Shown piece by piece: positions 6,320 to 61,013 of a stretch of DNA of 64,000 nt. The notes below the pieces were generated by a model, which saw nothing but the letters and a program-made list of their open reading frames with translations, had not been told where the DNA came from and made no database searches. The stretch is from Chrysomallon squamiferum (lineage: Eukaryota > Animalia > Mollusca): positions 14,260,001 through 14,324,000 of the forward strand of contig CM022673.1 in NCBI GenBank assembly GCA_012295275.1, written 5' to 3'. Positions within the stretch are counted from its first letter, which is position 1; each line of letters opens with the position of its first letter. The translations under genes were made by a program, and so were the position numbers.

Positions 6320-9300
6320 AATTGTTTTTTCTTTGGTCTATTCACATTCTAGTAAGTTATTGTTATTATCTTACATCGAGGAAACAGAAATCGTAAATGG
6401 TGAACATAATGTAAAAACTGAGCCAGACAGTGATATAAAGAAAAAACAATTTTCTGCTTGACTGATTCAGACTCCCTGTCACAAGTAAAAATCTGACATG
6501 TACTTTTGTAACTTGATTAGTCTGGTAAACATGTCTACATTAATTAGTTTCTACCTCCATCAAACCAGTATTAACTAAACATATTCATTTGTATTGTTCC
6601 ATTACTGTCTATACATTATATTAATCTAATAGTGTTCATGTATTTTATTAATCATCATTTTGTTAATGTAGTATATTATTTATATTTTATGCAGTGATCA
6701 TTCTAAATTAAATTATTTTTGCGATATAATCATTCATTGTGTTAATCAACTTTTATTCATAAATTATACAATACTTATTCAGAAATATTATACAGTCATT
6801 TATTAATAATAAATAATCATTGACAGGTTATTTTCAGGGACTATGAATTGAGTGTTATGATAATAAAGTTTTAACAATAAATGACACTTTATTCAGTTAA
6901 AGTCTGAATAAATTCCTTTGTTAATTTATTTAAGAGATAATTAGTAGACTATACTATTCTGTGTTCTACAGTTAATTTGTATAACTGATAATTGTGTTCT
7001 ATGTTCTGCAGGTTCTGTTAATTTGTATAGTTGATAACTGTATTGTTCTGTGTTCTACAGGTTTTGAGTTCATTTGTATAACTAATAACTGTATTGTTCT
7101 ATGTTCCACATATTCTATTGTATTGTTCTTTGTTCCACAGGTTCTGAGTTAATTTGTATAACTGATAATTGTCCTACATGTTTTGTCTGTGTTAGTTTGC
7201 ATAATGGATAATTATATTGTATCCTATGTTCCATGTATTATATTGTATTGTTCTATGTTCTATATGTTTTGTCTGTGTTAGTTTGTATAACTGATAATTT
7301 TATTGTATTCTATATTCCACATATTCTATTATATTGTTCTATGTTCTAAATGTTTTTTCTGTTAGTTTGTATAACTGATAACTATATTGTTCTGTGTTCC
7401 ACAAATTCTATTGTATTGTTCTATGTTCTTCATGTTTTGTCTGAATTAGTTTGTATAACTGATAACTATATTGTTCTGTGTTCCACATATATTCTATTGT
7501 ATTGTTCTATGTTCTACATGTTTTGTCTGAGTTAGTTTGTATAACTGATAACTATATTGTTCTGTGTTCCACGTATATTTTATTGTATTGTTCTGTGTTC
7601 TGCAGGTTCCGAGTGAGAAGTTATTGAAAGTAGGTCACATTCTACGTACTGTTTTACTGAGTCGAGCACCACACATGATACGAGACAGGAAGTATCATCT
7701 GAGGACGTATCGCAGGTGCATGGTTGGGTCAGAGATGGTCGACTGGCTCATGCAGCAGTCCCCCCTCGTACACACCCGAAACCAGGCTGTGGGGATGTGG
7801 CAGGGTCTCCTAGAGGAGGGAGTCGTAGTTCATGGTAAAGTATTATTTTAAATCCTAGATTACATTGATTTTATTGTGAGGAGTAAATCAATAAAGCTTT
7901 GACAAAGAAAGTTTTTCTCAAATTACTAAGTTGTCATTACCTGACAGAGATTTCCTGTAAGTCAGCAAGCTGTCAGATTATCTTCCTCACTTGTCAGTGT
8001 GTGACACAATGTCAGATATTGTAAAACATGGACTGATGTGACTAAACAGTCTGTATATTCTGTATAGTTCCAGGCAGTTACATTTGGCTTTGTTATCATA
8101 ATCTATCTGTTACTGGCTGAACTGTTCTCTCTCTCTCTGGCTTTTTATTTGTTTTTTGTTTACAATCTAGATATCTATTCTGGATTAAATAAAAAGTATA
8201 TACAGGTGGTGCCACAGCTAGACAGAGAAACAGAGACCCTTTTTTTCTTTTTTTTTTCTTACATGACAGATTGAGAAACCTATACTTTAATGTTTGTACA
8301 TTTATCAATATTTCAGTATCAACACAAATCAACTATTTGTATTATTTTCAGTTTGTCATCAACATCAGTTCAAAGACAAATATCTCTTCTATCGTTTCTC
8401 TGCCGATGATGAGGGTGTTGGGATGGCCCCGACAGCGACAGAGAGGAAGGAGTGTGATGAGATGTTGCAGGAAGCAATTACAACTCTAGCCAAGATCGGT
8501 CCAGACGCCATGATGAGAATGATCCTGCGAAAACCGTAAGTGTACTAAACACAGCACTTAAAATAGTAAACACAGCACTTAAAATACTAAACACAGCACT
8601 TAAAATACTAAACACAGCACTTAAAATACTAACACAAAACTTAAAATATAAACACAGCACTTAAAATACTAAACACAGAACTTAAAATACTAACACAAAA
8701 CTTAAAATATAAACACACACTTAAAATACTAAACATAGCACTTAAAATACTAAACACAGCATTTAAAATACTAACACAGAACTTAAAATAGTAAATACAG
8801 CACTTAAAATACAAAACACAGCACTAAAAATACTAAACACAGAACTTAAAATGCTAACACAAAGCTTAAAATATAAACACAGCACTTAAAATACTAAACA
8901 CAGCATTTAAAATACTAAACACAGCATTTAAAATACTAACACAGAACTTAAAATAGTAAACAGCACTTAAAATACAAAACACAGCACATAAAATACTAAA
9001 CACAGAACTTAAAATATTAACACAGCACTTAAAATACTAAACACAGAATTTAAAGTACTAAACACAAAACTTATTTTATAACTTAAAATACTAACACTAA
9101 ACTTAAAATACTAAACACAGAACTCAAAATATTAAACATAAAACTCATTTTATAACTCAGAATACTATACATGTACTAAATTTTTTATTTAAAATACTAA
9201 ACATAGTACTATTTTTATAATTTAAAATACTAAATTGACTTTACATGTCATTCTATGTGTCTCAAAAGAATCATGAAGATAGTTGGAGTATTAAAAATAG

Positions 9301-10373: not shown

Positions 10374-12159
10374 TACAGAATAAATATTGAATGTATTCAA
10401 CGTATCAAAGGACGAAGACACAATGGAAATCCTGAATATATGATATAAAAAAAGAGCATTTTAAGAAAACAGAGATAAAAAATATAAATATTTAACTGAT
10501 TAACAGGTTAGATTATTAAAAAAAAATTTTGCTGATGTCTGTTTTAACAGTGAAATATAGAACAAGTGTTTTTGAAAGAAACTGTAATTCTGCATAAGTT
10601 TTAGTATTTGGTTATAATGATGTTAATATTGATATATCCCAGTCATTGAGGTTTCTGTGGTTTTGTGTTGCTGTGTGTTATTGTTTTTATGATGATGTGT
10701 TTATATATTTGTTTTTCAAACTACAGGGAATTGTTTGTACTCTGAATGAAGGAGATGATTTTGGAAAACTTGCTCTTGTCAATGATGCTCCAAGGTAAAA
10801 ACATAAATACAAACTAAAAAATTAAGTTTATTAAAGTATTAAATATTGAACATGTTACATTAGAATTTTATATTAGAATGAAATCATTGGTTATGAATAA
10901 TACTGAAAACATTAAATGCATTTGTATTTCTGTCTTTCTTTTTACATTAGTTCATATTTTCATATAAATATTTCAAAACAAAAACAAATGATATCTCATA
11001 ATACAGTGGGTTTTAAACAGCAACTGAATTTTATGTTCAGTGAATTCTTAGTAGTCATTTTTTTTAGACATAACATATATAAGATAATATTTATTTCTGT
11101 CTGTGTGTGTATTTATTTTTCATTTAAAATAAAATGATGTTTGAAGTATCAAATCTAGTACAAATTAAAATTAAAATTATATTTAATGAATATTTTTATG
11201 ATGTGTTATTTTTCAGGGCAGCCACAATTATTCTCCAGGAAGACAATTGTCATTTTCTTCGAGTTGACAAAGATGACTTTAACAGAATTCTCAGAGTAAG
11301 ACATTTTAAATTCTAATTTAAAAAAACATTATTTAATAGTTTTGTAGATTGGTGAGCTGTTTTACATTGCAAAGTGTTTTTTTATTGTTTTTTGTTGTTA
11401 CTTTATACCTTTCAATTGAATTCATTAACACTCTAACACACTAACACACTAACATGTTTACGCTCCTTAAAACATAATGACATTACCAACAGGTTTTTTT
11501 TATATAACAATTTTTATAATACTTATGTATTTGTATTATGACGGTGTTTATAATAATGATGATTTTTATATAAAGACAGTTTCAGCATTAGTATGTGTAT
11601 TTTGTATTTGTACTAATGAGAGTCTGTGATGTTTGCAGGATGTGGAAGCAAACACTGTCAGGTTGAAGGAACATGGACAGAATGTTCTTGTGTTAGAGAA
11701 AATACCAACAAACATAAAGAACCAAGATGGAACAATCCATTCTCATTACAAGTTAGTTATAAAACTGATTTAAAATGATATTATAATAAAAGTCAAAAAT
11801 AATCAAAGATAAAAATAATCAAAAATAAATAAAACATTCATTTATTTATTCATTTATTTATGTATTTATTGTTTGATTGATTGATTGATTTATGTATATA
11901 TTTATTTACTTTAGTTATTCATTCATTCACCCATGTATGTATGTATCTATGTATTTATTTATTTATTTATGTATTTATGCATTTATTTGTTTTAGGTATT
12001 CTGTGATGGCAGGCACTGCTGAGAAGATGTTAGAACATTTACTAGAAACTAGGATGGATGGGAAGGGAGAGGAGCTTTCTTCAGGTAAACATCACCGTAT
12101 CTTAATTTTTAAATTTTCTTCTCGCTTTCTTAGAATTAAACCCACACACACTCACACCC

Positions 12160-12204
<45 letters not shown>

Positions 12205-13839
12205 GGCAATATAAATAGTTTTTGTAATAAGTAATATAAATGATCATTGTTTTGTTTCAGATCGGTTTCTAGAAGATTTTCTTCTTACACATGTAATCTA
12301 CATGCCAAGTGAGAGACTGTGTCGTGCCCTTGTCAACCAATATCCTTTAATTTAGATATTTATTTATGTGTGTGTATGTGTGTGTGTGTTACTTTGTCAA
12401 CCAATATCCTTTATTTTAGATATTTATTTATTTGTGTGGCATTGTCAACCAACATCCTTTGATTTAAATATTTTTTACATCAATCTGTGTTCATATTTAT
12501 ACGAGTATTTGTGCGTATGCATCACATAGTTGACCAATATTTTGTACTTGTATATATATATATATATATATATCTGTGTTTACTTTGGATGTGTTTGTGT
12601 GCATTAATTAAAACTTTGAAATAAAGTTCTTTAAAAAAATCAGTGAAAAATATAAAACTGTTGATAAAAACTAAAACAGAAAAAATAAATGTAAACAACA
12701 AGACAAATATTGAGATTTCTTTAACGAGCGAACCTATCACTCGGAGGCCACACTGGGCACTGACCAGGAGATAGCAGACTATATGTTGGCACACAAGAGG
12801 TCAATTGTCCAGTTTGTCTTAGCCTGGAACACCATCATTGGCGAAGTTTTTACCGATGATCCCGTCGTTGTGACGTTTGTGAAGGTAAATAACAAAACCA
12901 ATGTTGCAGGTCTTCATCAGATTTATCACTGAGATGACATTAACAGTCTAAATTGATTTCTTTAATTTCAGATTAAAACTGATTTTGAAAAATATAATTA
13001 GTATTAAAATATAAAAATTTCTAAACTGTTTTTAGTGAAGTCAGATGTATTTAAATATGAATAAAATGTACAAACTGTTTTGTACAGGATCTGTTGAAGA
13101 TATATTAAAATACATTTATAAAATATTAAATTGTTTTTTACAAGATCTAGTGAGGTATTAAAATACATTTATAAAATATTAAATTGTTTTTTACAAGATC
13201 TAGTGAAGTGAGATGTATTAAAATGCAGTTATAAAATAAAATTACATTTATAAAATTAGAAATTGTTTTTTTATAAAATTAAGATCTAGTGAAGAAAGAT
13301 GTATTAAAATACATTTATAAAATATTAAATTTAGTGAAGTGAGATGTAAATAAAATACATTTAAAAATTTAAATTTTTTTACAAGATCTAGTGAAGTGAG
13401 ATGTATTAAAATACATTTAAAAATATTAAATTGTTTCTATTTAAAATTTGTAAAATGTATTAAACTGTTTTGTTCAGGATCTGGTGAAGTCAGTGGAGGA
13501 GGACAGTGGAGTGTATCCAGTACTGAAAGATGATCTTGAATCACTGGAGGCCATTTTACAACTGAAAAACAAGTTAGTTGTCACCTTAGTTTAAAAATAT
13601 TTTATTTATATGTTTATACCCATTAGACACATTCAACCTCATTGTGTCTGTGTCCACATTCTATAAAAATCAAACACACATTATAGTATATTACAAATAC
13701 TAACATTTATTCTATAAAACTGGACTGTAATTAAATGAAGATAATTATTTCTACTTTATCATGTAATTCATTTTATTTGTTATTTATTTAGTTATTTATA
13801 TTTTTTGGTGTTTGTAATTTTAGTTAGCTATTCTTAAAT

Positions 13840-15500: not shown

Positions 15501-18500
15501 ATTATTATTATATTATTATTATATTGTTATATTATTATTACTATAATTATTATTATTATTATTAATATTATTATTATTATTATTATTATTATGAATGTTA
15601 GTTTTGTGTATTTTATTAAAGACGCCGCTGCCTGAACAGGAAGGTCCAACAACAGGGACATCGGCATTACTAGAACTGATGAGTACAAAGGAACTTGCCT
15701 ACCATCTTATGCAGTACGACTGGGAGCTGTTTGTGTGTGTCCATGAGGTATGTCTGTCTGTCTGTATGTATATAGGTAAATAGGTAGGTAGGTATGTAGA
15801 TATGTATGAATGCATTTTAGGATTTTGAATATTCTCTGTCATATGTATGTATGAATGAATGTATGTGTATATGTGAATGCATATATGTACATGTGTGTTT
15901 GTGTGTGTGAATGTATGTTTTTCTGTGTGAGTAGGTATGTCTGTAAATGTGTTTATGTCTGTGTACACATGTACTTTTTTCTGTAACTGTCTTTCACATA
16001 TATATTTAAATGAACTACCTTTCATTATTTTCAGTTTCTATACAGCTATTTATGTCTCATCTGTTTTGTTGCAGTATGAGTTGATATATCAGGTGTTTGG
16101 TAGACACAAGTTTCAGAAGATCACAGCTAACCTTGACCTCTTTCTGAGACACTTCAATGAGACTCAGTACTGGGTTGTCACGGAGATGGTTTTGTGTACC
16201 AACAGCAGCAAGCGAGTGCAGCTTCTGAGAAAATTCATAAAACTAGCTGCTCAGTGAGTAACCTGTAACAGTTCAGTGAACACTTGTTCAGTGAGTAATG
16301 TGTAACAGTTCAGTGAACACTTGTAACTTTTCAGTGATTAATTTTGTAATAGTTCAGTGAACACTTGTAACAGTTCAGTCATTAATTTTGTAACAGTTCA
16401 GTAACTTTGTAATAGTTCAGTGAATACTTGTAACAGTTCAGTGAGTAACTTGTAGAAGTTCAGTGAGTAACATGAAGTAGCTCAATGAATTACTTTAAAA
16501 AGCTCAATAAATTACTTCAGTAATATATCAAATAGGTCATTCCATAACATGTTTCAGATCAGTGAATAATGTATAACATACACACAAAGAAAGCACACAT
16601 GTTATCTATCTATTTATATAAATCTGTGTTTAATGAAAACTTGTTTTTGTTTCTAGCTGTAAAGAATACCAGAATCTAAATTCTTTCTTAGCCATTGTGA
16701 TGGGTTTGAGTAACATCGCAGTCAGTCGACTGTCGCAAACCTGGGAAGTAAGTAAAATGTGTTTACTTCTTTTTATATTCATTAGAACTGATCAACCTTT
16801 TTACTGCCAAACTTCCTGTACATGATCAGTCAACTGAAGCAAGGGAGAGAAGCAGAGAGAGAAAAATGTATTTAAATAAATACTGAGAAGTATATCACTC
16901 TGATCAGGAGCAGAAAGTGAAAATTTCAACTTTGGTTGACATGGATACAAAACAGATTAAACAGTTTATCTAAATGAAGGGAGATTATCCCAGCTGAGTC
17001 ATCCAAAAATAATCAGTACATTTCAAAAATGTATCGGAGTAATCAGAATGCAATTAGAAACCAATTAATTTGACCAGATGACATTTTCTGAAATAATAAA
17101 TGGGAATATTTTTAACATTTCTCACATATCTAATTACGTGCATAATGTAGAGGTGAAGGATTTTTTTAAAAAAACATTTCTATTTATTAATGTTAATTTT
17201 TTTTTTTTTTTAATTAAATCTGATTTCAGAAACTGCCAAACAAGTTTAAGCGGATGTTTGCCGAGTTTGAGACTGTGATGGATCCGTCAAGAAACCATCG
17301 AGTGTACCGACTGACAGTCGCAAAACAGTCTCCTCCCATCATTCCTTTCATGCCACTCCTCATGAAGGGTTCGTTTCAATTCTCAGTCGTTTCATTTATA
17401 AACATGCACTGTATTTAATCATTGTGATAATTATAAATAATAATAATGATGATGATGGTAATTATAAATAATAGTAATAATAATAGTACAGTTATTGGTA
17501 AGAATATCTCCTTTAGTTATTTATGATGGAGACTGTTATAATTGTAAAGAATATTATAATTAAAGATTAATGGATTAATGTGGATGGATAAAGTTTTAAT
17601 AATGATGACAAGATTAGAAATAATAATAATAGTAGTAGTAGTAGAAGTAGTAGTAATAGTAGTAGTAATAATATCAACTGTAATAATAATTGTAATATCA
17701 TTAGTAATAATAATAATATCAATTATAACAACAGCATAATAATAATATCAATTATAACAACAGCAACAATAATAATTAATAATTACAAAAAGAACAGTAT
17801 TAATGTTAATAATACATTTGTTTATATTCTGAACATTTTTCAGACATGACTTTCACTCATGAGGGAAACAAAACATACTATGAAAGTCTGGTTAATTTTG
17901 AAAAAATGGTAAGATAGAAATTAAAAACCACTGCACTCAAATTTTAACATCCATTATATATTTCTTAATATGCCACTTTGTAGTTTCCATCTCCATTGAC
18001 CAACATTTTTCACATTGATATCAGTTACCAATATTACACTGATGCATGAAACTGAATTCCCTGTTCTGTTTACTTTTTATGATTACAATAAATATTTTAA
18101 AGCTTTTTGGATTACTGACACCCAAACATCATTGTTTACTTTTTGAAAAAAAATAAAGGTGTTTATTTATTTATTATTACTTTTTTTAATTTTAATTTTT
18201 ATTTTGCTAAATTATTATTGATTATCATCAGTCATTTAATTTTACATATTTTGTGTTTGTTTCAGCACATGATAGCTCAGACTCTGAGAACTGTCAGGTT
18301 CTGTAGAAGTCAGCAAATGGGTAAGAGTCAAAAAATACACATCTCTTTACTTACATATTTAATTATCACATGTGTGATATACAGTTCAAGATAATCCATA
18401 GTAGACACTGAGAAGAATGGAACCTCCAATCTGTCACTCCTCAAATATGTACACTACATATCACAATAACAGAATATTGGTTTCAATTCAGTATAGGTTT

Positions 18501-22788: not shown

Positions 22789-23736
22789 TTCCATTCGTAC
22801 ACAAGGATTTCAAAAATAACTAAAATTTTGTTAGTACATTTAAAAATGTTTATATTTAGTATGTATACGTGACATCAGACACACCTAACGGATTGTATTC
22901 ACCATGAGCTCTCTAATCTGAAGAAAACAACAGCTGTTTTAATTGTAACGTGACAGTATGAAACCGAAGAATGTGACCCGCTAAATGAAAAAGTACCATA
23001 CGGCGCAACTATGCAGGAAAAAGTCATTTATATTCTCAGCCTAATAACTATCTGTGTGTGTGTGTCTTTATTTTTTTTTGTTTTTTTTTATATTCTGGTT
23101 GATGATCCGATGCTGTAGCACTATTTTTGACTGCGATGACGTTGCTGAATTTGTATTTGATTGTCATTAGGGTAAAATAAAATGATAAAAGAATCAGTAT
23201 TAACTTTTATCTTCTGAACTGTTTTGATTTGAAATTTGATAAAACGAGTGTCGATTCATTAACAAATTATTAGTGGCAGACTTATATAAATATTAAATAA
23301 AATAAAATAAAAAATGTAAAAACTTCAAATAAAAAATAAATAGTAAAAATAACAGTAGATGTTTATAATTCATTAGTAAAACTTATTTAAATAATTAAAA
23401 ATAATAATAATAAATAAACAAAATGTTAATTAAAATTTTATTTTGCTCTTAAAAGTTTCAGATTAATATCTAAATATTAAATGTAGAAGAAAAGCTTTTA
23501 ATAAAATGAACACAATTATATTTCTATGTACGTGTGTCTGTATTGCATGTACGTATGTATGTAAATATAGTATTTGATAACGTGTGTGTGTGTGTGTTCT
23601 GTTTAAACTACATTAACTTAGCAGAATTTTAATAAATCATACTGAAAGGTTTAGCGGAGGAATACAGTAAAGAATAAAAGTAAACCGGGTTTAAGATGTC
23701 GGAACACGTCGTTATGTCGTTGAGAAAATATGTGTT

Positions 23737-24526
23737 TTAAGCTGTTGTTGGACAGTAGTAACAGGACGGACACCTGCGACCGCTGGGTGTGGTAAATACT
23801 CCCATTTTCAGGGGTACGTCGCAGGGAATCTGGGAAGGAGCAATACACTTGAAAAGAGGACACTCGGAAAACAGTCCCTCTCGTCTTAGCTGTAACAGAA
23901 ATAAACAGTCACGTGATTTTTAATTGTAACGCCGTGACCTACATGATATAAAGAAAAATACTAGACGAATTTTCGGCAGAATGTCAAATCAATTCTACGT
24001 AATGAGAGTCACAATGGTTACATTCATCTGTATTACATAATTAATTATACAGTGAAATAATGTTAAAATACAGGGGAAATAATACTTCATGGTTACGCAA
24101 AACTCGGACGTCATTTATTTATTTAAATACTGTGTGGTAATACTAGAATTAAAAATTACATAAATAATAATAAAAATAAATAAATAAATTTAGATAAAGA
24201 AACGTGAGTTTAATATGTGCATCATGTATTAAAGTTACATTGTATTTCGTTTTTTATTGTTGTGGCTGCTACTGTGTTGTGTGGTTTTTGTTGTTATTTA
24301 TGCTGTTGTTCCTTATATTTTTAATTAAATTTTAATTTAATTTTTAATGTATTTATTGTTGTTGTTAACGTACCCTACTACTTCTTGTTGATGATGATGG
24401 GCAGTAACTGCATCCGTAGCACACTTTGCCAGAAGGCGTCGTAAACGTGGACGTTTTGTATGGAACATCACATGGTCCAGGGTTTACACATTTAAACATT
24501 GGACAGAGATCTGCAATGTCTAATAT
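23737..24526 (-). CDS. Unannotated tandem six-cysteine peptide precursor; last two exons, 5' end unresolved
   Basis: Exon 24526-24374 (tttcttttaacag / gtacgt; 153 nt) = ILDIADLCPMFKCVNPGPCDVPYKTSTFTTPSGKVCYGCSYCPSSSTRSSR. Exon 23889-23737 (tttctgttacag; 153 nt incl. TAA) = LRREGLFSECPLFKCIAPSQIPCDVPLKMGVFTTPSGRRCPSCYYCPTTA*. Phase-0 join. The two exons encode homologous modules with all six Cys conserved. Confidence 0.85.
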
Positions 24527-24559
24527 CTGTTAAAAGAAATTTCATAAAGCTAGAATATA

Positions 24560-24835
24560 AATAGACACAACACAACTTTGATAACATAAATAGATAAAAC
24601 ACAACGTTGACAACATAAACCCATACAATACAACTTTGACAACACAAACAGACACAACACAACATTGACAACTTAGACAAAATACAGTTTTGACAACATA
24701 GCAGACGCAAAACAACTTTGAGAACATAAACAGACACACAAAAATATTTGGATGAGACAATAAAAACAATACAGTTTTGACAACATAAACAGAAGCCACA
24801 CAACTCTGACAAAGAGACACCAAACAACTAGGACA
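24560..24835. repeat. Degenerate minisatellite (ACAACTTTGACAACATAAACAGAC-like)
   Basis: Visible tandem copies; source of the C/V/L-rich ORFs 24492-24827 and 24542-24838. Confidence 0.8.
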
Positions 24836-25354: not shown

Positions 25355-26529
25355 TTGGAGTGTACACGTACGTCTTAGTACGTATTATATATTTTACCAC
25401 TTATCTCAGTTTTTCCACCACTAATATATTGCTGTGCATATAAATAAATTTGACAAAATACCCACTTGAATATACGTGTAGGTCTAAGTACAAATTACAT
25501 ATGTACTCAGTTACCTATCTCTGTTACATTAATGATATCTTGTTGTGTATTGAAATTAAATTTGACAAAATACTCACATGGGGGGGTACACTGCGAGCTG
25601 AAAACAAAAGAGAAGTGATTTTAAACAAAATAAAATACGACAAATGTAATTTAATTTCTGTGATGACGATTCTCTCGATTAGCGTAAAAAAAGTTTGTAA
25701 ATTTATAAAGATATCTCGCTGCCAATGTCGGCTTGAAGTGGATGAACGTTACTGATATAAAAGCTATTTAAAAATACGACCTGTCAGAAAGCGTGCCCGT
25801 CGTAGACGTGCTTTACAACAGCGTTTCACGATAAAACAATGTATAATCAAATTTACATGATTATTCAAATAGCTAAATATAGAGACATAAACACATAACT
25901 ACAAATTTTTCAATTGAAATCTGCTCCCTTATCAACTGAATAACAGATGAATTATTGTTCTATTTCTTGCATAAATCTATGATTTTATATATATTCAACA
26001 GAATTGTTATATTCAGTATAATTATTTATTTATTTCTAATTAAAAATAAGTATATAAATACTTTTAGCTTACTTCTTGATAACTATTTCATTGTCAATAA
26101 TGTTGATGTTTTCTCTATTAGTAAGTGTTGACAATACGCAAATAATACAAAAATATAAAATGCTGCCGAAACACACAAACACACACACACACAGACATAT
26201 ATAAATATGTACACACACATAAATATGTACACACACCATACACACACAAATACATATGCTGTTATTATTATTATTTGCCTATTCCCTAGCAGTTATATAT
26301 GTACACGAGAACAAGCAAGAGGAGGTAATTAATGAAACTGACCTGCCAATCAATCATTCAGCTGTGTCTACGGTCATACGTAAGACTTGAGAATGTAGGT
26401 ATAATACGTATATACACTGAGAGGGACACAGATACATTCGTATACATATACGGACAGACAGACAAAGACACATGGAAAATAAATAAATAAATAGTTAATT
26501 AATTAATAAATAAATACCTGAAATAATTC
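25182..26529 (-). other. Candidate upstream micro-exons of the Cys-rich peptide gene
   Basis: Minus-strand AG/GT-bounded segments with pyrimidine tracts: 26529-26518 (12 nt), 26416-26343 (74 nt, donor CAG/gtcagt), 25597-25578 (20 nt, donor gtgagt), 25224-25182 (43 nt, donor gtaaac). The reading frame is ambiguous. Confidence 0.45.
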
Positions 26530-27440
26530 CTGTAAGAAAAAACAGAATGAAATGTAAAACAGACATATTTAAGAACGTGTTCTGGTGTCTACGTGCTCAG
26601 TGAAAAGATTAAGCGAAAAGAGACAAAGAAAACGGGAACACTTGGCATGTAGGTTATCACTTTGTCACTTTACACGGATACAAAAGACATTTGACGCATT
26701 TCGTTTGCAACAATTAAAAAAAATTTGTTTTGAAAATATTATAAAACAAATAAATAAATGAATAACATAAACAATTAAAAATTAAAAAGGAAAAGAAAAA
26801 GAAAAGAAAAATATAGAGCGAAAAAAAAAAAAAAAAATATTTAACTATTTAATTGTTTGTTATTCCAACGTTAAAAGCTAAATGTTAGATTTAAAAAAAA
26901 AAAATCAATGAATAAAAAATTAAAAAATTAAATTAATGAGTTGCACAAACACAGAAAGGGAGTCGTTTCGTGAGCGCTTTAAGACATTATTACACAAGAT
27001 TATATACGTATATCACAACGTGGTAGACCACGTCGTGCATCCGGAAGCAACAACTTTAATAATCGTCACTTTGTCAAACCGCTGAAAGCGATTCGCCGCA
27101 GACATAATTATTTGACATGTCACTGAGGCCAGTTTTGGGATAACAGTTCTTGTACAAATGCCTTTATTAATATTATAAACATAAGTAATGAAATAAATAA
27201 CATTTTCTACCTGCATCTTTTTTGCGAAATTTCATTCATGCAGGTGGAAATCTGTTTTTATATTGGTCGCTACAAGAAAGCAAATAATTCAACATCTGTG
27301 TAAATACAGTGATATATTTGTGAAACACTTTCGAACCCACAGGTACACTTAGTCACGTGACATAGACTGTCGTAAGAAGTTTGCAATCATTCAAACACAT
27401 CACACACTCTCACCGAGGCTTCACGCTACCTTCACTAAAA

Positions 27441-27754
27441 ATGGATTTTACTCTTTTGAGTGTTTTATTTTCTCTAATCGGAATCGCTCTGGCGTACCCC
27501 AGTGGAGCGCCAACTGACGCCTGTTCAAATCTTCTTCCGAACCATGGTGCCGATCCTTCCAAAACTGCATCACCTTTTACCATCAGTGTCAGTCAACAGA
27601 CATACTCTCCTGGTACTCCGATTACAGGTAACATTTTACAATTTATTTCTCTTATTTTTCTATTTCTATTTATAATAATAATAGTAATAATGATGGTAAT
27701 AATAATAATATCATCATCTTAGATTAATAGATCTATTCATATCATTATCGTTAC

Positions 27755-28508: not shown

Positions 28509-29609
28509 ACGATGTTTAATGAACAAAATAAAACAACTGATTTTTAATGCCTAAGTTTTATTTTATTTATTTTTATTTTTTCTAGTTACCATAACAACGT
28601 CTGACGAGCAGAATTCTCCTATTTCGGGTTTCCTGCTTCAGGCGCGATCATCTGGTGGAAACACGCCAGTTGGAACATTCTCGAACCCGCCGCAGTACAC
28701 GAAGCTGCTGACGTGCTCTAACAGCGGCGACTCCATCACACACTCGTCCAGTGAACGCAAAGGAAGTACTGTGCAGTTTACGTGGAACCCACCCACTAAC
28801 AACGTCGGCAATGTCGTCATCAGGTATTATTGATAACATTGAATAACCACAAGAGAAAGAATCTGCACTAGTATTCTCCATACTTCATATACCTACATAC
28901 ATTCATATATAGAAACACGTACAAGCACACGCAGACACACACACGGACATACACATATACAAAGATAGGCATATATATTATACACACACTTACATCCATT
29001 CATAAATACATACATACGTAGTTTTACAAATACAGGACATACATTCATATTGTTTTAATGTGTTTTATTTTAGCGGGACAGTTGTCGCGTCAAAGCTGGT
29101 ATATTTTGGAGTGTTGAATTCTGACTCCATGTCATATTCACAAGGTATGACTTCTACACCAGGTAAAATTTAAATTGATTTTTTTTTTAGCTTTAATTTG
29201 ACTAGAAGTACTGCAATTCTTTAATTTAGTTAATGTGTACTTTATATTTTTGTTAATTACGGTATCGACGAATAAACTGTATTATACTCAGTTTTTAACT
29301 GTTGAAACCTTTAATTTTCCTGCAAACATTTAACAAGTGTTAATAGAGACTGTCTAAGCTGCAGACCTTTTAGCCTTTATCTAAATAAACATATTATTCA
29401 TCATGAACATAACCATCGTCATAATTTTCCAATTACAGGATAGATTAATGTTAAGAATATTTAATGGTTGCGATAAAAAAATGTCAGTGACGTAATCTGA
29501 TTTGTTTATAATTACAGGAAACTATGGTGTGAGACCGTCATCTAATAATATTATGGCAGCTATACTGGTTTTCGTCGCTTGTATCCTCTCCACTTTATTC
29601 TTGAAATAG
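27441..29609 (+). CDS. Reeler-domain protein (defense protein / FRRS1 N-terminal-like) with signal peptide and hydrophobic C-terminal tail; 4 exons
   Basis: Exons 27441-27627, 28586-28823, 29074-29162, 29518-29609 (TAG). Signal peptide MDFTLLSVLFSLIGIALA. Reeler motifs YPSGAPTDAC..LLPNHG, GFLLQAR, PVGTF, C..DSITHSS...K, FTWNPP, GTVV. Tail IMAAILVFVACILSTLFLK*. Confidence 0.9.
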
Positions 29610-35942: not shown

Positions 35943-36145
35943 ATAATTAAATTGCAGTCAGTTTATAGAAATAGGTAAATATTTTTATTTTTGCATTATT
36001 ATGGAATGACAATAATAAAGAGAACAGATAATAAATTTGAAATCTTTAAATATTGTTTCATCAGATCATTTACTGTTTACTTACTGGCAAGTTTAACTCT
36101 TTTTTTTTTTTTTTTTTTGTTGTTGAAGAAACCCAAAAGAACAAG

Positions 36146-39100
36146 ATGGACAATAATGACCACCCTGAACTAAACCCCCAGACTTCATACTATTATAGTT
36201 ACATGCCTCCTATGTTTTCTGGTGTACAGGAAAGTTACACTACATCTTTTCAACCAAATCCATATCAATATTACATGTACCAGCCTCAACCGTATGATTA
36301 CTCTGTTTACCAACAACAGTATGTTCAAAGTGCTGATCCTGGTAATTTTGCTGAATTTAATCAGCAGAACTCGACTCATTCATACCGTCAGAATCGTCCA
36401 CGAGTCAAAACTGGTGAAAATTTCTATACTGACACTTCTTCCAGTTCCAGACCTGCGAGTGGGATTTCAGAAAACAGCCAGCCTAATAATTACCATGGTA
36501 ACAGCAACAATAATGCCAGCAATTCTCCTAGTAATAGTTACAGGAACAGGGATACTCACCATCAAGGAGGCCGACAGAAACAGTCTCGTGGTGGCAGATA
36601 CTCTAATGATAAAAGTCACATTAACAAGCCAGAGCAGCAGTCTGCTACATCTGAAAGCTCATTCAGAGGTAGAAACACAAGATCTAGAGGAGTTTCCTGG
36701 AAATCTTATCAGGATTCAAGATCTTCTAACACTCGTTTAGATAGTGTGGAGGATGCTGGTACTGATGGAACAAAGAAAATGTCAGATGGAATCAAAACAA
36801 AACACAGAGATTCAACACGAGGAGGGTTTTCTAGGAAAAATGATTTTAGAAATAATCGTGGCAGCAGATCATACTCCAACCAAGATGTCCGTTCCAAAAT
36901 GAATGGAAGTTCTAGAGTGAAAGCAGAAGAAGAAGAAAATCAGAGAGGTTTGACAAATAATTGAAATACCAGTCTTTAATCAAATGTACTTTAGTCTTTT
37001 TTATTATTATTTTTATTATTATTATTATTATTATTTTTTTTTTTCCCATACAGTTACTGTGAGATCTTACAGCATAATGCAAAATATTTTTATAATATTA
37101 ACTTAATTCTGTTATAATTACAATTTACCATTTTATTATAAAGACTTTTTTTTTTCTTTTCTTTTTTCTAGTCTTTTATCTTATTTTTAGTTGTTATCAT
37201 ATTTTAAATTTTAAATTTTTAAACTAATCAAAGTATCCATCTAGTACAGAGAAGTAAACAAATTTTACAGTTTATCTTTGCTATGATTTTCATGTTTGCA
37301 GTGCTAACTTTTCTTACAGCGACACTGATAGAGCAGTTGTCACGTGGTTGTTACGAGTGCATGGTTTGCTGTGACAACATCCGCTGTGAAGCTGCAGTGT
37401 GGAGTTGTTCAAACTGTTTCCATGTTTTTCATCTTGGATGTATAAAAAAATGGGCCAGATCTCCAGCTGCAGTGGAAGGTATGTAAAAAGTTTTATCATC
37501 AGCTAATCTTGTCTGTAAATAATGTGCTTATCTGAAGGTCAAGATAACAGGATTTCCTTTTGATAAAGATCAGTCGGTTTTGTTTGTGAATAATGTTAAA
37601 AGATGTATTCCCTGTCTTAAGATAATTTAACTGATAAAGAACATGTTAACATCCATTTGAAACAGTTAAATTTATTACAGTTAATATAATAATAATGGAA
37701 AGTTATGCAATTATTATTCTGTTACTGAAAACAAATGATGTATTGAGAAAAATAATGTATGACTGTCACCAGTATACTGAAACATCTATGACAAGGTTCG
37801 TGTATTAAAAAAAATGTAACAATATAAAAAATTACTGCTTGTGGCTTGAAATGGATGATACAGGTTACAACTGTGACATAATCATTATAAAATATATGTC
37901 ACCTGAAATCTGTCAGTAAAATGTTCTAAATAAAATAATTTTTTTATATATGAGTAACATACACATATGTAATGATTTAAATAGACATTTATTCATATAT
38001 AAATAACATGCATACATAGTATTATTAATAAAAATAATTTAAATAGACATATTTATTTATATATAAATAACATATACACGTGATGTTATTGTCATTGTTA
38101 ATATAATATTTTGAACAAAGATATATATATATATATATATATATTTTTTATTTATATATAAATAACATATACACATGTAATGTTATTATTCTTTATTTTC
38201 AGGTGATGGTTCAGGCTGGAGATGTCCAGCTTGTCAGAATATTTCAGGACGTGTGCCTTTCCAATATCGCTGTTTCTGTGGTGTGTACTTTCACTTTGTA
38301 CTTTACATTTGCATTATTATTGAGCATCACTGAATGATAATGTTATAAAAATGTATTCTTGTTTGACTTTAAACAACAACTGTCTAAGAATAAAATATTT
38401 TAAGAGGTGAATCAGTAAGTCTGGTTGATGATATAAACTGAACTGAACTAAAAAAAATCTGATTAATTGTGAAAAAAAACAAACAAACAAATTCACTAAT
38501 TTTATTTTAAATAAAGATTATTTAAACACTGTAAAGTTTAATGAAATCTAGTTGCAATATGGTTCATGATGTCTATGTGTTGTGGTTGATGATGTTTATG
38601 TGTGTTGTCAGGTAAAGTTCGTGACCCTGTGTACATCAGGAACGACACACCTCACAGCTGTGGAGATGTTTGTAACAAGAAGCGTAAAGGAGATTGCTCT
38701 CACCACTGTACCCTGTGAGTTCACTGCTGTCTTCAGTTTTATTAGTGTACAAACTGTTCATTATTTAAATACTTAACATCAGTGTTATTTGTGTGTAAAC
38801 TGACATTTTAATATTTAAATATTTAACATCGGTGTTACTGGTGTGTAAACTGACATTTTAATATTTGAAAACTAAATCTTAGAAAACTAATTAAAGACAG
38901 GAGCATCTGTTCACATTATTACTGAATTTTTCTGAAGAGAATATTTAATATTTACGTCTAGGTATAATATTTAATTACAGTTAATAATTTAATTATCTAA
39001 ATAGTAATAATTGATAATATTTTGACAGTTCAAAAATATATAAATTAGTTATAGAACTATTTGTATGAGTGTGTTAGAATTATTTTATTGGTTAGTGTTT

Positions 39101-42201: not shown

Positions 42202-45200
42202 GACACACATACAAATACCAACACAATTGTAATAATAGATTTCAGTTATTATTTATAATTTTGTTAGTAAAATATTCAAACTGATTTTATGTACAGTGTT
42301 TAGTACTGTTTTGCACAGACTCGCCGCACACATGTACAAAACTCTGTCACGAGGGTCCGTGTGGTCCATGTAATGGGCAGACAACTCTGCGCTGTAAATG
42401 TGGAGCTGTTGAAAAGGAGTTCTCTTGTACAGAAGTTACAAAATTTACAGGTTTGTTTTTTATTTAAATTACCTTTTTTAAAATAATTATATATATATAT
42501 ATATATGCACCAGTATCAGTGTCTTTTTCTAGATATATATGTGGATAACTTCAGTATAGTAACTTTTAATTTCTTGTAGATTTGTCTAATAAAGTAATAT
42601 AATTAATTAATAAAATATTTTAATTTTGTAGATGAAAAACCTTTCAAGTGTAACAAACGATGTTACAAGAAGAAATCATGTGGTAGGCACAAGTGTTCAG
42701 AAACATGCTGCACAGTGAGTTTTACTTTCACTTTTACTTTCACTTTCACTTTCACTTTCACTCTTATTAGAAATATTATTTATTCCCTGCTTTGTGTTTT
42801 AGTTTTTTACTGTAAACTTTAATGTAACTTTAATAAAAAAAAATAGCATTCGTTGTCAATTTTTCAATTTAAGATGTGGTTTCAATTTAAAACTCATTTT
42901 AGAAAATATAAAATTAAAAACTTAAGAATTAATTTTATATATATTTTATTGATTTGATGAAATTTATGCTATATTTGTTAATTTTAAAGAAACATTTGTT
43001 CACTTTGAACAGAAAGAAGAACATGTTTGTGAGTTTATTTGTGGTCGCAAGTTGAACTGCGGAATTCACAAATGTCAAGATCCTTGTCACAAAAATAACT
43101 GTCTACCTTGTTATCAAGCCAGTAAGTAACTTGACATCAATTCATTAACTACTTGACATTGTCAGTAAACATAAATGACATTGTCAGTAAACATAAATGA
43201 CATCAAGTCTTGACTATGCTGTCAGTAACTTTACAATAACATTCTTTGAAAGCATTTAATTCATATGCATAATGATTATATAACTATCCAAATAATAAAT
43301 ATAAAACAGCTTGATACCAGTTGTAATATGGATACATAGTAACCTACCTAAATAACACTTATGTTCTAAAAATGTAAAATAATTTCAGGTTTTGAAGAGT
43401 TGACCTGTCACTGTGGGGCAGAGATTATTTATCCCCCAGTCCCATGTGGAACCAAACCTCCTGAGTGTAGGAGGTTATGTTCTAGACCACACCCTTGTTC
43501 TCACCCAGGTAAAGTTTTATCTTTTACCTCATTCTTAGTAAATAGCTAAATAGTTAATTATGTATTGTACAAACTGAGTTATTTGATTGGTTTACTGAAT
43601 TATGTAAACATTACTCTGACTGGTTTATATGACTGTATAAAAGTGTATCTGATTGGTTCACTTAATTATCTAATGGTTTGTCTGATTGGTATAAATAATA
43701 ATGTAAAAGTATGTCTGACAGATTTAGTTAATTGCAGAAAGGTTTTTCTATTTGGTTCAGTTAATTACATAAAAGTACCAAAGATTGGATTTCATTTAAA
43801 CTGCAAAAATATATGTAATTGGCTAACAGTGGGATAGTGTATACTGGCTGAGGTAACTATGTAAAAGTATCTCTGATTGGTTCAGTTAACTGTAAAAGTA
43901 TGTGTGATTGGTTCAGTTAATTGTTAAAGTATTTTTGATTGGTTTAGTTGATTAAGTCAAAGCATCTTTGATTACTTTAATTAACTATGAAAATGTTTTT
44001 GTGTTTGGTTAAGTTAATTATGTTAAAGTATTATTTAACTGGTTCATTTTATTATGTAAAACTTTCTGTGAATGTTTTAGATATGAATTGTAATATCTCT
44101 CGGTGTTCAGACTAATTAACCGATTAATTAATTGACTGTGTTTCAGTTCGACACACGTGTCACAGTGATGAGGTGTGTCCACCGTGTACAGAACTCACAG
44201 AGAAGATGTGTATGGGGGGGCACGAGGTAAAAAAAAAAAAAAAACTCTTTAATTAATTAGTATCACTATATAAAACAATGTCTGACACCACTGACTCAAA
44301 ATCCAAAACACAAGGAGGAGGATTTAATGAACATTTAAATGTTGTTTTAACAGAAAAGGAAGAACATCCCGTGTCACATGACGGACATTTCGTGTGGAAT
44401 GCCGTGTGACAAACTGCTGCCGTGCGGAAACCACAGGTGCAAGAGAAAATGTCACAAAGTGAGTGAGACACTTTCAGTTGTTTTTTTTCAGTTTTATAAA
44501 GTTTCACAAAGATGTTTTTTAATTTTACCAATTTTTTTTTTTCATTTATTTACAAAGTTTGTCTTAAAGTTTTTAAAAGTTTACAAAGTTTTATAAATTT
44601 CCAAAAAAAATTTTTTTTTACAATGTTTTTGAATTTTTAATTTTTTAAAAAGTTTTGCAAAGTTTAGATGTTTTTTTTTTAAGTTACATAAAATTTGTAC
44701 AAAGATTTATAAAGTTTTACAGTCCTATAAAAATCTGATCTTGTTGTTCACCTTACTTACACTGCTTTCTACATTTAGGTAACACACCACTAAAAAAACA
44801 AAAAAATAAATAACTTAAAATGGATCTAAAAGATTTTGTCTTCTTTAGGAGCTAAAGTTATCAAGTGTTTGCTAAAGTGATTTGATTTAAACTAAAATAT
44901 TTCAGATCTTGACTTGTTTATGTACTAGATTTTTATATATACATACAGGGTGACTGTTTGGGTGAAGGTGAATTTTGTCAACAGCCATGCAGTATACCTC
45001 GTCCAGACTGTGGTCATCCATGCAGTGTGCCCTGTCATGTAGGAATGCCCTGTCCACAGGTGCCTTGCAGGACAGAGGTCAGTGTCCATTCTGACCACTA
45101 GTTTCACCCCTTTTTGTTTGTGTGTATATCTGTGTGTCGGTGTGTGTGTGTGTGTGTGTGTGTGTGTTGTTGTTGTTGTTGTTTTTGAAAATATTAATAA

Positions 45201-47124: not shown

Positions 47125-50100
47125 GACAGACATAGATGTTTAAATATATAAAATAAACATATAACTCTATCCAGTTAATAACAATTGTTTGTAAATATTT
47201 GAAATGTAGCAATTTTTTTATGGTTTTTATTTTTTTTGTGTATTTTTTTTACTGTTTGTATTTTAATTTTTCAGAAAAAATCTTCCGTTTGTGACGTCAG
47301 TTGAGAAAGGTTTTTCTGAACTGGTTCACAGTGCTAAACAGGTAGGTTGGTTAAAAATATAAAATATTTCACAATGTTCACACATGCATATAATATCTGT
47401 AACAATAATGTTGATGATGGTAGGATCTGCAAGGTAAGTTTAATGACTGAATCAACACATTTGTATTTCTTGTATTTCTCTGTTTATTTATTTGAGAAAT
47501 CTGCACTGAGCTAGATGATTCTTCTTTTTTTAATCATTTTTTTTTTCTGTTACTTTTTTTTTTTTTATAATATATATTTTTTTTTGATTAGCAGCAATGG
47601 AACTTTACTATACACCTTTCCTCTTACAGGAAAATACAAACCATGGCTTTTATCAAACTGGTTGTGGGATATTGCTGTCACTTGCGACAGCTCAACAACA
47701 GATGGTTAAGGAATAATGATAAAATGTGTGATAATATTTTTCAATTTTTGTTTTTTCAGTCTAAACAGGTAAGTCGAAGTCACGCATTTCCGCCAGGTAA
47801 CAGAGAACAGCGCAGAGTGATCCACGAACTCGCTGAGTTTTACGGTTGCGACACACAGAGCTACGACTACGAACCAGTGAAAAATGTTGTAGCAACAGCA
47901 AAACGGTAAATTACAGCATCTACAGTTACAACAGTTATATTGTGTAAATGTTGTTATGTTTGTACAATGTTTTATAGTGTAAATATTTATTTTTATACTA
48001 TAAATATGATTACATTTATTCAGTTTTGTGGTACAAATCAGGAGTGCGCAATCTGTGGTCATCACTTTTAATGTCCCCTTCCTATGGTGGGTAGAAAATA
48101 AGGGTTTGTTGCACGTTTTTTAACTGACTGAGAAGTACAATAATAAATAAGTAATTAGTCTTCACTGTATCATCAGCAGGCACTCTGTACAAAAGTGACT
48201 GATTTCACTGACACACTGATCCACGTCAAACAAATAGTCATATGTGTTTGGGACAGTGTTCTTCGACACTGGCAGATTGGTGCTATCTTTGAGGACAGTG
48301 AAGTATCTGCTGAAGATGTTTTGTACCACAGCTCAGTTCAGTGGCTATCTCAGGGAGAAACAGCATGTTGTGTTCAGTATATGTGACGAGACATTTCAAT
48401 CTTCTCTGCTAAGAATAAACATCTTGCATAAACATCTTAAATCAGGGTTTTCCAGATGTACCACAGAGTTCAAGAATTCATGGACAAGTGCCATCTACTG
48501 CTGAACCTCATTATGAAGGGACAGTGTATTCAGCTCTTAAGCAGCAGCTGGTCATTTACCAGAGTGATGTCCCCACAGTTCCATTTATTGTTGTTTTTGA
48601 CTCTAGTTTGAATGAATTTGATGATCGATTTCAGTTATTCCATGAAATGAAAACAAAACTGGTTGCAGCTGAAACTGGTTGCAGCTCCTGTTTACAGTCA
48701 AAAGTGAGAGTGGCCCACTGGAACTTCAAATGGACCTGCTGGAACTGAAAAGTGATGCCATTCTAAAGAACAAATTTAATGAGAGTGTTGATCCACTGGA
48801 TATTTGGAAGTTGGTGGTGGCAATTCCTAATCTTCATGAGATGGCTTTACATACCCTTGTTATCTTCGGGAGTACATGCTTATGTGAGGCAGCATTCTCC
48901 AAAATGAAATACTTGAAAAGCAAATATCGATCACTTGACAGATTGGAATCATGCTTGTGATTGATGCTCTCGACCTTGCCTGTAAGTTTCAAGAATCTGG
49001 CAATGCACACACAAGACTATGCCAGTCATTGATAACTGTACGAGTAGATGACTTTCAAAGTTGCTATTTAATAAAAGCAATAAATAATATTAAAAACTGT
49101 TTTATTTTGACTTTTTGTGAATCACAGAGGGATGAAGTCAATTCTCATGGAAACATGTAAATGCACGCATTATTTATATGCAGCATTTTAAGTCACAAAG
49201 GTCATCGTTAGAAAATTATGCAAAATCATATATGTTCAGATTTGACATAATCACAAAGAAATTTGTGCAACTGAAGTGCTAGTGAAGTTAAAACTCAGCA
49301 GGCTGTAAGATCAGAAAGAGTGTGCACCTCTGCTATAAATGTTACTACCTTTATTCCTTTTTATTGTATAAATATCACTACATACATACACTCAGTTTTA
49401 TAGCATAAATATTACTACCTTCAGTATTATAGTATAAATATTACTACCTTCATTTATAGTATAAATATTGCTACCTTCAGTATTATAGTATAAATATACA
49501 TTCATTTACATTTATTTTATACTAAAAATATTACTACATTTATTCAGTTTTATATTATGAATATACATTTATTTAGTTTATGTTATGAATATCAGTACAT
49601 TTATTCAGTTTATACTAAAAATATTACTACATTTATTCAGTTTCATATTATAAATATTATTACAATTATGTTGATTCAGTTTTATATTATACTGACACTT
49701 ACTCAGTTTTATGGTATAAATATTACTACATTTATAGTTATCCAATTTTATAACACACTTTTTACAGTTGAATCTGTAGGTTATGACTTGTCAAATTTTA
49801 GTGATAAATAATTTTTGTTACAATTGTTATTAGTTATACAACAGAACATATGGTTTAATATTGACAATTACAGTTTAATATTGATAATTACAGTTTAATA
49901 TTGATGTTTACAGTTTAATATTGATGTTTACAGGACAACATGCTGGATGCCGTCAGTAACATTGAGTTCAATAATACAGAGAGAACTTCACCCCAAGGCT
50001 CCCCCACCTATACCCCACATCAGGTTTGTGACATACTGTTTTAAAATACATCATTTAAATACAAAACAGGAGACACTTGAAGTCTGTTGGTTAGACAGCT

Positions 50101-52747: not shown

Positions 52748-53218
52748 TACACATGCATGTATACCCCCCTCAAAAAAAAAAAAAAAAAGTCTTATAATCG
52801 TGATTTTAAAAAAAAAAAAAAAAAAGATTCCTTTTATTATGTCTGTGTGCGGGTATGTTGTATTAGTCGGATTTCTGCAGACAAATTTATCTGTTTCAAA
52901 CATTTTATCAAAATCTTCTTATTTCATTTTATTAATTAACGAAAGCGTGTTCTGCTGAATTTTCTGTTGACAGTTTTGTCGTGTGTGTGTGTGTGGAAAT
53001 GTATTTTATCTATTAAATAATGCACGTATCTATGTCATTGTTAGATAATACTGTTTTGTCTTACTGTTGTAACCTCTGACCCAGTCAGCTCCCAGAATTC
53101 CTCACCAGACATTGTCTAAGCACACAATCTGTGAGTTAAGTTCTCATTTTGGAGTTCTTCAGTTTGGTTTTACAGACGACTGTTATTACTGTGGCTATTT
53201 GGCCAACAGTCGTCAGTT

Positions 53219-59055: not shown

Positions 59056-59435
59056 ATTGTGTGTGTGTGTTTTAACGGTTTTTTCTTTTCCGTTTATTCC
59101 TCTGTTTTCTAGAAAAGAGATTAATCTGTATTTAATATATCACCGTCATAAAACAAAATCTAAAATAAAATAAAATCAGAATTTTTTATTATTTTTTAGG
59201 AAACACAGAACAGAAGGACGCTGACTGTTTATTCTGTTGTGCAGGAAAAACGTGAAATCCAACAACTCCTAAACGTACTGATTTGTGAAGTCAAAATAAT
59301 TTCTGACTCTAAGATAATACTCGGGTCAAAACCCGTTTCTGAAACAAAAATATACCTAATTCTCGAAACATCCCATCAGATTAAATACATTTTGTTTCCA
59401 GAAGTAGTTTAATCTCTGAATACTGAAAGTCAGCC

Positions 59436-60943: not shown

Positions 60944-61013
<70 letters not shown>

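Follow-up and report, generated by a model that had tools for sequence, protein, structure and literature searches.

The stretch of Chrysomallon squamiferum DNA considered here comprises 64,000 nucleotides (assembly GCA_012295275.1, contig CM022673.1, positions 14,260,001 to 14,324,000 of the forward strand); it is called the window below, and all coordinates are counted from its first letter. Its minus strand carries a real, spliced coding gene whose last two exons encode one six-cysteine module each. As judged from sequence comparisons, this gene is a member of an undescribed mollusc-wide family which extends from chitons to gastropods. Its product is probably a secreted precursor, predicted to be cut by a convertase of the furin/proprotein convertase type at a basic RSSR-LRR site, which would give two peptides of about 47 residues, each likely to contain three disulfides. 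It would therefore be a precursor of a known type, the disulfide-rich polyprotein, built on an undescribed module.

Exon A (24526..24374, minus strand, 153 nt) encodes seven residues, the first six-Cys core and the tail PSSSTRSSR. The coding part of exon B (23889..23737, minus strand, also 153 nt, including the TAA stop codon at 23739-23737) encodes LRR, a short spacer, the second module and the tail PTTA. The intron that separates them on this strand (23890..24373) is 484 nt long and has GT..AG ends; its GC content is 26%, compared to 43% and 51% in the two exons and 30% over the whole window. Exon A is preceded by ttttaacag and followed by gtacgt, and exon B is preceded by ttctgttacag. The initial annotation had proposed two minus-strand exons of 153 nt joined by a phase-0 splice: the coordinates and the splice signals were reproduced, both exons read in phase 0, and the translations match those quoted earlier exactly. 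Across the junction the peptide sequence is ...C-P-S-S-S-T-R-S-S-R / L-R-R-E-G-L-F-S-E-C...; the first half of the basic site, R-S-S-R, is encoded by the final four codons of exon A (24374..24385, minus strand), and the codons at 23881..23889 (minus strand) give the second half, L-R-R, which together with the preceding arginine forms R-L-R-R. The 3' untranslated region (UTR) occupies 23628..23736 on the minus strand and ends with a putative poly(A) signal, ATTAAA (23633-23628, minus strand), recognized by eye in the sequence.

Evidence for splicing comes from public sequencing contigs, which were aligned over 23612-24556. They belong to a DNA run (X1), two runs labelled as RNA (X8 and X9) and a run whose library kind is unrecorded (X10; 312,159 records, 34.8 million letters). 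One X10 contig of 285 nt (depth 2.7) joins 24476..24374 directly to 23889..23708 and skips 484 nt. The skipped segment ends in CT..AC on the plus strand, that is GT..AG on the minus strand, and the junction is exactly the predicted one: the spliced support across 24374/23889 that had been suggested as a check of the gene is present in this contig. The joint fixes the 3' end of exon A at 24374, and the exon B side is covered colinearly from 23889 to 23708, including positions 23736-23708 of the 3' UTR. The earlier statement that the splice junction itself builds RSSR/LRR also holds, as the sequence reads so and the contig joint gives the juxtaposition in RNA. Three contigs of the DNA run X1 align colinearly with the window, intron included; thus, the joined form is not the genomic state in the X1 sample. 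The X1 contigs and the window show 15 differences (10 substitutions and 5 indels), all of which are in the intron or the 3' UTR; the 306 bases of the exons have none. With uniform and independent differences, the chance of finding 0/15 in the exons would be 0.003, a figure which is treated only as a hint because the differences are clustered.

At position 23818, the spliced X10 contig has T on the plus strand instead of the G of the window, which turns GAC into GAA and thereby the Asp of the conserved CDVP in module B into Glu. Given the depth of 2.7, this may reflect an allele, a different strain or an error.

The cysteine spacing is C-x4-C-x5-C-x16-C-x2-C-x2-C in module A and the same in module B, except for x7 in the second gap, and 23 of the 38 columns are identical in the alignment of the two modules (A1). 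The spacing and the identity that had been read from the sequence are thus confirmed, by a pattern scan and by this alignment. In a stop-free six-frame scan of the window, the cysteine pattern occurs twice, both times in these exons, and in 100 dinucleotide-preserving shuffles it occurs 0.02 times on average and once at most. In tblastn searches of the window, the modules match each other with E values of 2e-11 and 7e-11, and the next match has an E value of 0.8. Between the modules, the proportion of nonsynonymous differences (pN) is 0.32, that of synonymous differences (pS) is saturated, and of the 23 identical residues, 16 are encoded by different codons. A saturated pS together with a pN of 0.32 indicates an old duplication that is maintained by selection at the protein level. 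The idea of exon-duplicated paralogues therefore stands, with the precision that the duplicates are old and under purifying selection. Aligned at the DNA level, the flanks of the two exons retain no intron homology. No third module was detected anywhere in the 64-kb window, either with a hidden Markov model (HMM) derived from homologues or by sequence comparison, and an Rfam scan of the whole window returned no family.

A Cys-rich frame of 98 residues at 44253-44549 (minus strand) contains CPSCDTGC; it matches module A in tblastn with an E value of 4 and was missed by the family HMM. Its resemblance to the module is probably due to chance.

Relatives of the gene were found with HMMER, using profile A1 against 1.84 billion protein representatives at a cut-off of E<=1e-3. 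The search returned 12 proteins, nine of which carry the six-Cys module in one to seven tandem copies; the E values of these true relatives range from 5e-17 to 7e-4. Six of the nine have names in NCBI or UniRef and all six are from molluscs: Haliotis rubra, H. rufescens, H. cracherodii, Littorina saxatilis (two proteins) and the chiton Liolophura sinensis. The remaining three, from JGI/IMG, Logan and ENA, are nameless. Bivalves and cephalopods yielded no annotated homologue. The relatives include LOC124264897 of H. rubra (XP_046555633), its H. rufescens relative XP_048246623, which is automatically named "kielin/chordin-like", Haliotis LOC124131056/XP_071102545, KAK7088699 and KAK7088702 of L. 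saxatilis, one of which is called "Antistasin-like protein" in UniRef, and LOC135478070 of Liolophura sinensis. All the named relatives are either "uncharacterized" or automatically named, and none has a described function. Three proteins were rejected: P0001 (judged on residues 561-760), P0007 and P0012 have repeats of a TPSG(R)-like motif and no Cys framework. The sole metagenome-contig locus (L001) was also discarded, as a chance match of an eight-residue pattern in a frame which meets a stop 14 codons further on; it sits in a GC-rich contig with a 539-aa open reading frame (ORF) on the opposite strand.

In the 13-row alignment A2, C10, P11, C15, C23, P26, C40, C43 and C46 are invariant, and P18 and G19 are conserved in at least 90% of the rows. 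Both modules of the window carry all eight invariant columns, and the framework can be written C-P-x3-C-x(2-10)-C-x-x-P...C-x2-C-x2-C. The relationship was also tested in reverse, with an HMM built from 11 homologue proteins (38 distinct modules) and containing no sequence from the window. Among 2709 ORF pieces of the window, this HMM matches only the two exons (E values of 1e-14 for A and 1e-10 for B), and the next match has an E value of 0.99. Profile searches in both directions thus find relatives that retain the Cys pattern, which the initial annotation had suggested looking for.

Neither module matches a family in Pfam (E<=10) or in NCBIfam. There is no sequence match in the PDB, in which profiles A1 and A2 find no chain at E<=10, and the ESM Atlas gives no usable match with module B or with the homologue P0009. 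A word-indexed protein search with module B and A1 gave no candidate with three common five-residue words; the same kind of search from P0006 returns only P0006 itself and its H. rubra orthologue P0019. In Pfam, the homologues show only a sub-threshold match to DUF7567 (20–23 bits, for a cut-off of 27), which falls on variant modules; the variant reads CPHLPCP...W..FWYHGK.CKGCQ.C in the Haliotis proteins P0002, P0005 and P0016. Since the six-Cys module is conserved between Polyplacophora and Gastropoda and is represented neither by a Pfam model nor by a solved structure, it is a candidate new domain family. Full-text searches of the literature found no paper on the module; supplementary tables (on shell matrix, mucus or neuropeptides) were outside the search and could contain a homologue. 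The suggestion of an undescribed framework is therefore correct in that neither Pfam nor the PDB sequences contain the module and no paper on it was found, but predicted homologues are already present in NCBI and UniRef as uncharacterised proteins.

These results bear on the possibility that neither frame yields a protein, the pair being either the remnant of a pseudogene or a chance pattern. Such a reading could invoke the start codon and signal exon, which are not established, and the single spliced contig of low depth. It is extremely improbable, and strongly disfavoured, considering that the GT..AG excision in a public contig is precise, that both frames are intact, that residues are kept over saturated synonymous sites and that none of the 15 population differences is exonic. 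Moreover, the homologue HMM recognizes both exons (1e-14 and 1e-10), and the mean number of patterns in shuffled sequences is 0.02. On the evidence of one spliced contig and of conservation, a compact two-exon unit that is below the size of an ordinary ORF listing proves to be a genuine gene.

Regarding processing, the RSSR-LRR junction contains both R-S-S-R and R-L-R-R, and the latter fits the convertase motif R-x-[KR]-R. The linkers between modules were counted in nine homologue proteins, leaving out P0010 (a genomic read-through) and P0013-P0018 (members of shared 90%-identity clusters, that is isoforms or close orthologues). Two or more consecutive Lys or Arg are present in 12 of the 17 linkers which connect two canonical modules; of the five exceptions, four belong to P0011, a divergent protein with seven modules, and one is KPQR/EV in the chiton. 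Only 3 of the 11 linkers involving a variant CPxLPCP module have a dibasic site. Overall, 20 dibasic pairs are found in 577 linker residues, versus 7 in 1294 module residues. In alignment A2, the basic residues fall in one shared column: RSSR in the window, KVRR in H. rubra, PVKR in H. rufescens, TKR in Littorina, KPQR in the chiton, SKR in the JGI protein and KKK in Haliotis. Because its position is conserved in the linkers of the homologues, the furin/convertase motif that had been pointed out at the junction makes processing plausible. The pattern of linkers across homologues appears to be the main new support for a processed precursor.

The residue that follows the basic site is Gln in 6 of 16 homologue sites, and one Littorina linker contains GKKR. 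It is possible that this Gln becomes pyroglutamate and that GKKR is an amidation signal. Gln after a basic site and linkers of the GKKR type are typical of prohormones of the regulated pathway. In AlphaFold2 models of the separate modules, the predicted local distance difference test score (pLDDT) is below 50 in the tail of module A, including RSSR (residues 48-51), and at the N-terminal LRR end of module B (residues 1-6), as suits a convertase motif in an exposed linker.

At the 5' end, the frame of the modules is closed by a TAA just upstream of 24529, so that exon A starts at one of three AGs (24526, 24519 or 24510). The acceptor at 24526, the exon start proposed in the initial annotation, is in phase 0 and is the first AG after a T-rich tract, while those at 24519 and 24510 each need one upstream base. 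Counted from Cys1, the lead-in of module A has Leu at -6 and is acidic at -2 and hydrophobic at -1, loosely like L-[IV]-H-[LI]-[NE]-[MI]-C-P in the homologues. This resemblance suggests that at least part of ILDIADL is likely to be coding.

The named relatives all seem to have signal peptides, as judged by eye. Among the homologues, the full-length P0006, P0008 and P0009 begin with a hydrophobic sequence that resembles a signal peptide, which is shorter in P0003. The corresponding candidate in the window is a first coding exon at 26518..26566 (minus strand, low confidence), which consists of an ATG and 16 codons, MSVLHFILFFLTGIIS, and one extra base, followed by the donor CAG/gtattt. Between exon A and the reeler-domain gene described below, no other ATG frame outside simple repeats both looks signal-like and has a donor scoring 4 bits or more. 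Its assignment as the first coding exon is tentative and somewhat doubtful. Two other frames were tried as first exons for the phase-0 acceptor and rejected for their weak donors, starting from the ATG at 27203 (TTT/GTACAA) and from the ATG at 26357 (CTC/GTGTAC). The frames at 28.9-29.0 kb were also rejected; they are in TG-rich simple sequence just downstream of a reeler exon. Directly upstream of exon A lies a minisatellite with a 29-nt unit (24557-24738, 6.4 copies, 74% matches). Its minus strand has long open frames rich in Cys and Val, which are not coding evidence.

Several observations weigh against the secreted and processed precursor. The RNA-labelled runs X8 and X9 gave no aligned contig, which may be a false zero and is counted neither way; X8 and X9 contain fractions of 0.33 and 0.32, respectively, of the sampled words of 23600-24700, and about 0.34 is estimated for the exons and UTR alone, values which are not counted as evidence. 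Since X8 and X9 gave no contig and the library kind of X10 is unrecorded, the status of transcript depends on a single contig of low depth from which a GT..AG segment is precisely excised. This contig starts at 24476, inside exon A, so that the 5' boundary at 24526 is putative. Because it ends in phase 1, the candidate exon at 26566-26518 does not fit the acceptor at 24526; only 24519 or 24510 would keep the frame. For the signal-peptide exon the window offers candidates only, none of which is backed by RNA. As to the linkers, the counts overstate independence because the orthologue pairs P0002/P0005 and P0006/P0019 are included, and they represent about six separate genes or lineages. Cleavage is predicted at the level of sequence motifs, and the modules can also function unprocessed, considering that four of the six linkers of P0011 have no basic pairs.

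The product may thus be a secreted two-domain protein that is left uncleaved, such as a matrix, mucus or binding protein, in which the basic linker is a flexible spacer. In addition to the linkers of P0011, this alternative can draw on those that involve variant modules in Haliotis P0002/P0005 (variant-variant and variant-canonical), of which just 1/7 is basic and several have N-x-T sequons instead; such linkers imply that uncut multi-module chains exist in the family. It is nevertheless rather unlikely for the gene of the window: the basic site of the window aligns in a single column with those of Haliotis, Littorina, the JGI protein and the chiton, dibasic pairs are about six times denser in linkers than in modules, and the site of the window is a double motif, RSSR plus RLRR.

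The processed precursor, which is the preferred explanation, would function as follows. An upstream exon would encode a signal peptide, as expected from the signal-like N-termini of the homologues, 26566-26518 being the best local candidate. The precursor would enter the secretory pathway, where the six cysteines of each module would oxidise to three disulfides around a beta-hairpin core. A convertase would cleave after RSSR and/or RLRR, and a carboxypeptidase would trim the basic residues. The two peptides would then act extracellularly, most likely as ligands, and this step is the weak one.

The AlphaFold2 models have a pLDDT of 74 for module A (from an alignment of two rows) and of 77 for module B (13 rows; the five models span 72–77). 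Both show a beta-hairpin with Cys4-Cys6 on the second strand (E28-33 and E39-45 in B). With Foldseek, neither model has a match in the PDB at E<=1e-3, although a model of about 50 residues proves neither the absence of relatives nor a new fold. In a VIA-align wide search of 48,161 chains, model A has no match at Z>=2 and model B has one, at Z 2.1, to an unrelated membrane transporter; here too the domain has only about 50 residues.

The best guess, and a weak one, is that the gene encodes the precursor of prohormone-like or pheromone-like ligands rather than a cationic antimicrobial. A broader version of this idea is that the family consists of pan-molluscan, prohormone-like polyproteins dating to early molluscs, whose cleavage at conserved basic sites would release disulfide-locked ligands of about 45 residues, a new class of signalling peptides (hormones, neuropeptides or pheromones) with a fold that has no solved relative. 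This version is speculative and, taken as a whole, unlikely.

The locus is gene-dense, according to the ORFs and Pfam matches. The six-Cys gene sits between an Epac-like gene and a reeler-domain gene, both on the plus strand, and is head to head with the latter. The Epac/RAPGEF-like gene has Pfam matches to DEP (7552-7851) and RasGEF (15931-16257), and an exon that resembles a cyclic-nucleotide-binding domain by eye (11889-12218, plus strand). The reeler-domain gene has matches to Pfam Reeler in the frame at 27366-27722, which contains its first coding exon (E 3e-5; ATG near 27440, with the signal-like start MDFTLLSVLFSLIGIALA), and in a second exon at 28555-28833 (E 1.5e-17). As this gene is head to head with the six-Cys gene and about 0.9 kb from its candidate first exon, the two genes may share a bidirectional promoter.

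Some reeler proteins are immune-related, which raises the possibility that the peptides are host-defence antimicrobials co-regulated with their neighbour. They would be small, secreted and disulfide-rich, and the gene is divergently oriented beside the reeler gene, but adjacency alone is a weak argument. With net charges of 0 and +1, the predicted peptides are near neutral, which argues against a classical cationic antimicrobial role. The Foldseek and VIA listings contain no fold of the defensin type, a result that is inconclusive for so small a domain. Altogether, this alternative is very improbable. The initial annotation had put forward protease inhibitor, antimicrobial or toxin-like peptides; no evidence was found behind these classes, and the near-neutral peptides are unlike typical cationic antimicrobials.

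Further along the plus strand, an R3H-domain exon lies beside a remnant of a hAT transposase (47592-47909 and 48419-48960; hAT C-terminal dimerisation region, E 4e-5). A carotenoid oxygenase of the RPE65 type is encoded by an exon of 480 aa at 53880-55322 (Pfam RPE65, E 3e-70), and 53135-53515 is likely to be an N-terminal exon of the same gene. A coiled-coil-like ORF (493 aa without a Pfam match) is followed by a death-domain exon in the interval 59427-61612, the death-domain ORF being at 61214-61612 (Pfam Death, E 1e-7). At 36050-36964, also on the plus strand, a frame of 304 residues that contains an internal ATG, is rich in S, N, R and Q and has no Pfam match may encode a low-complexity protein of the nuclear or RNA-binding type.

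The analysis links the gene to mollusc proteins that are labelled "uncharacterised", "kielin/chordin-like" or "antistasin-like" without a domain match that supports these names. If the linkers are true processing sites, the family would provide mollusc biology with a new set of disulfide-rich secreted peptides, which could be involved in signalling, defence or protease control. If the linkers are uncut, it is one more lineage-restricted Cys-rich secreted protein, ordinary in invertebrate genomes. Lineage-restricted Cys-rich secreted peptides are common in invertebrates, but this one is conserved across classes and, on the evidence of the spliced contig, expressed.

The names borne by some homologues invite a comparison with known Cys-rich families. 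Searched against Pfam at E<=1, the 11 homologues show no Antistasin, Pacifastin_I or VWC domain, and nothing above a curated cut-off. As there is no matching Pfam domain, their database names look like automatic labels, and the sequence comparisons do not support a relationship of the family to antistasin, pacifastin or VWC proteins. The Foldseek and VIA listings contain no antistasin, pacifastin or defensin chain either, a result whose weight is limited by the small size of the domain. The VWC repeats of kielin/chordin proteins resemble the modules of the window in being Cys-rich, tandem and extracellular and in having CxxC motifs. However, a VWC repeat has ten cysteines and the module of the window has six, and there is no match to VWC (PF00093), even in the Haliotis proteins called "kielin/chordin-like", so this name looks like an annotation artefact.

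Another comparison is with the antistasin-like domain (PF02822), which is that of leech antistasin and hirustasin. It shares with the modules of the window the six cysteines, the C-x4-C start with Pro after Cys1, the close terminal Cys triplet and the tandem repeats. The spacing differs: the window has x5-7 and x16 and ends in C-x2-C-x2-C, versus x3, about x10 and C-x2-C-x-C in antistasin (as quoted in the initial annotation). The looser relation to antistasin that had been mentioned there is not upheld, the Antistasin HMM matching neither the modules (E<=10) nor the 11 homologues (E<=1).

Arthropod pacifastins also resemble the gene of the window on paper. According to PMC13388995, their precursors are secreted multi-domain proteins made of six-Cys domains of about 35 aa with dibasic sites in between, the disulfides of which connect Cys1-4, 2-6 and 3-5, and cryptic homologues have been reported in Mollusca. 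The cysteine spacing is different in the window, whose modules do not match Pfam Pacifastin_I (PF05375) and have no identifiable P1 loop.

The modules might still be very divergent serine-protease inhibitor domains of the antistasin or pacifastin type, and the gene that of a processed inhibitor precursor. The six cysteines, the CP-x3-C start and the CxxCxxC end, loosely like the spacing of antistasin, would agree with this, as would the "Antistasin-like protein" of Littorina and the architecture of pacifastin precursors in PMC13388995, with their dibasic sites and mollusc homologues. Yet neither Antistasin nor Pacifastin_I is found by Pfam in the modules (E<=10) or in the 11 homologues (E<=1), profiles A1 and A2 retrieve no PDB chain at E<=10, the spacing of the cysteines departs from that of both families, and no reactive-site loop can be recognized. 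An inhibitor precursor is therefore improbable.

The proteins that most resemble the gene of the window are its mollusc relatives. They have the same six-Cys module, with CP at the start and C-x-x-P at Cys3, at 43–60% identity to the modules of the window; in both, the modules are in tandem and a basic site is present in the linker between canonical modules. Even the C-termini are alike: the Haliotis gene ends in ...CPYCPTTTTA and that of the window in ...YYCPTTA. Some differences set the window apart. The named relatives have two to seven modules, and most begin with at least one variant CPxLPCP module, whereas the HMM detects none in the 64 kb of the window, and both modules of the window have the hairpin turn FTTPSG, which the homologues lack.

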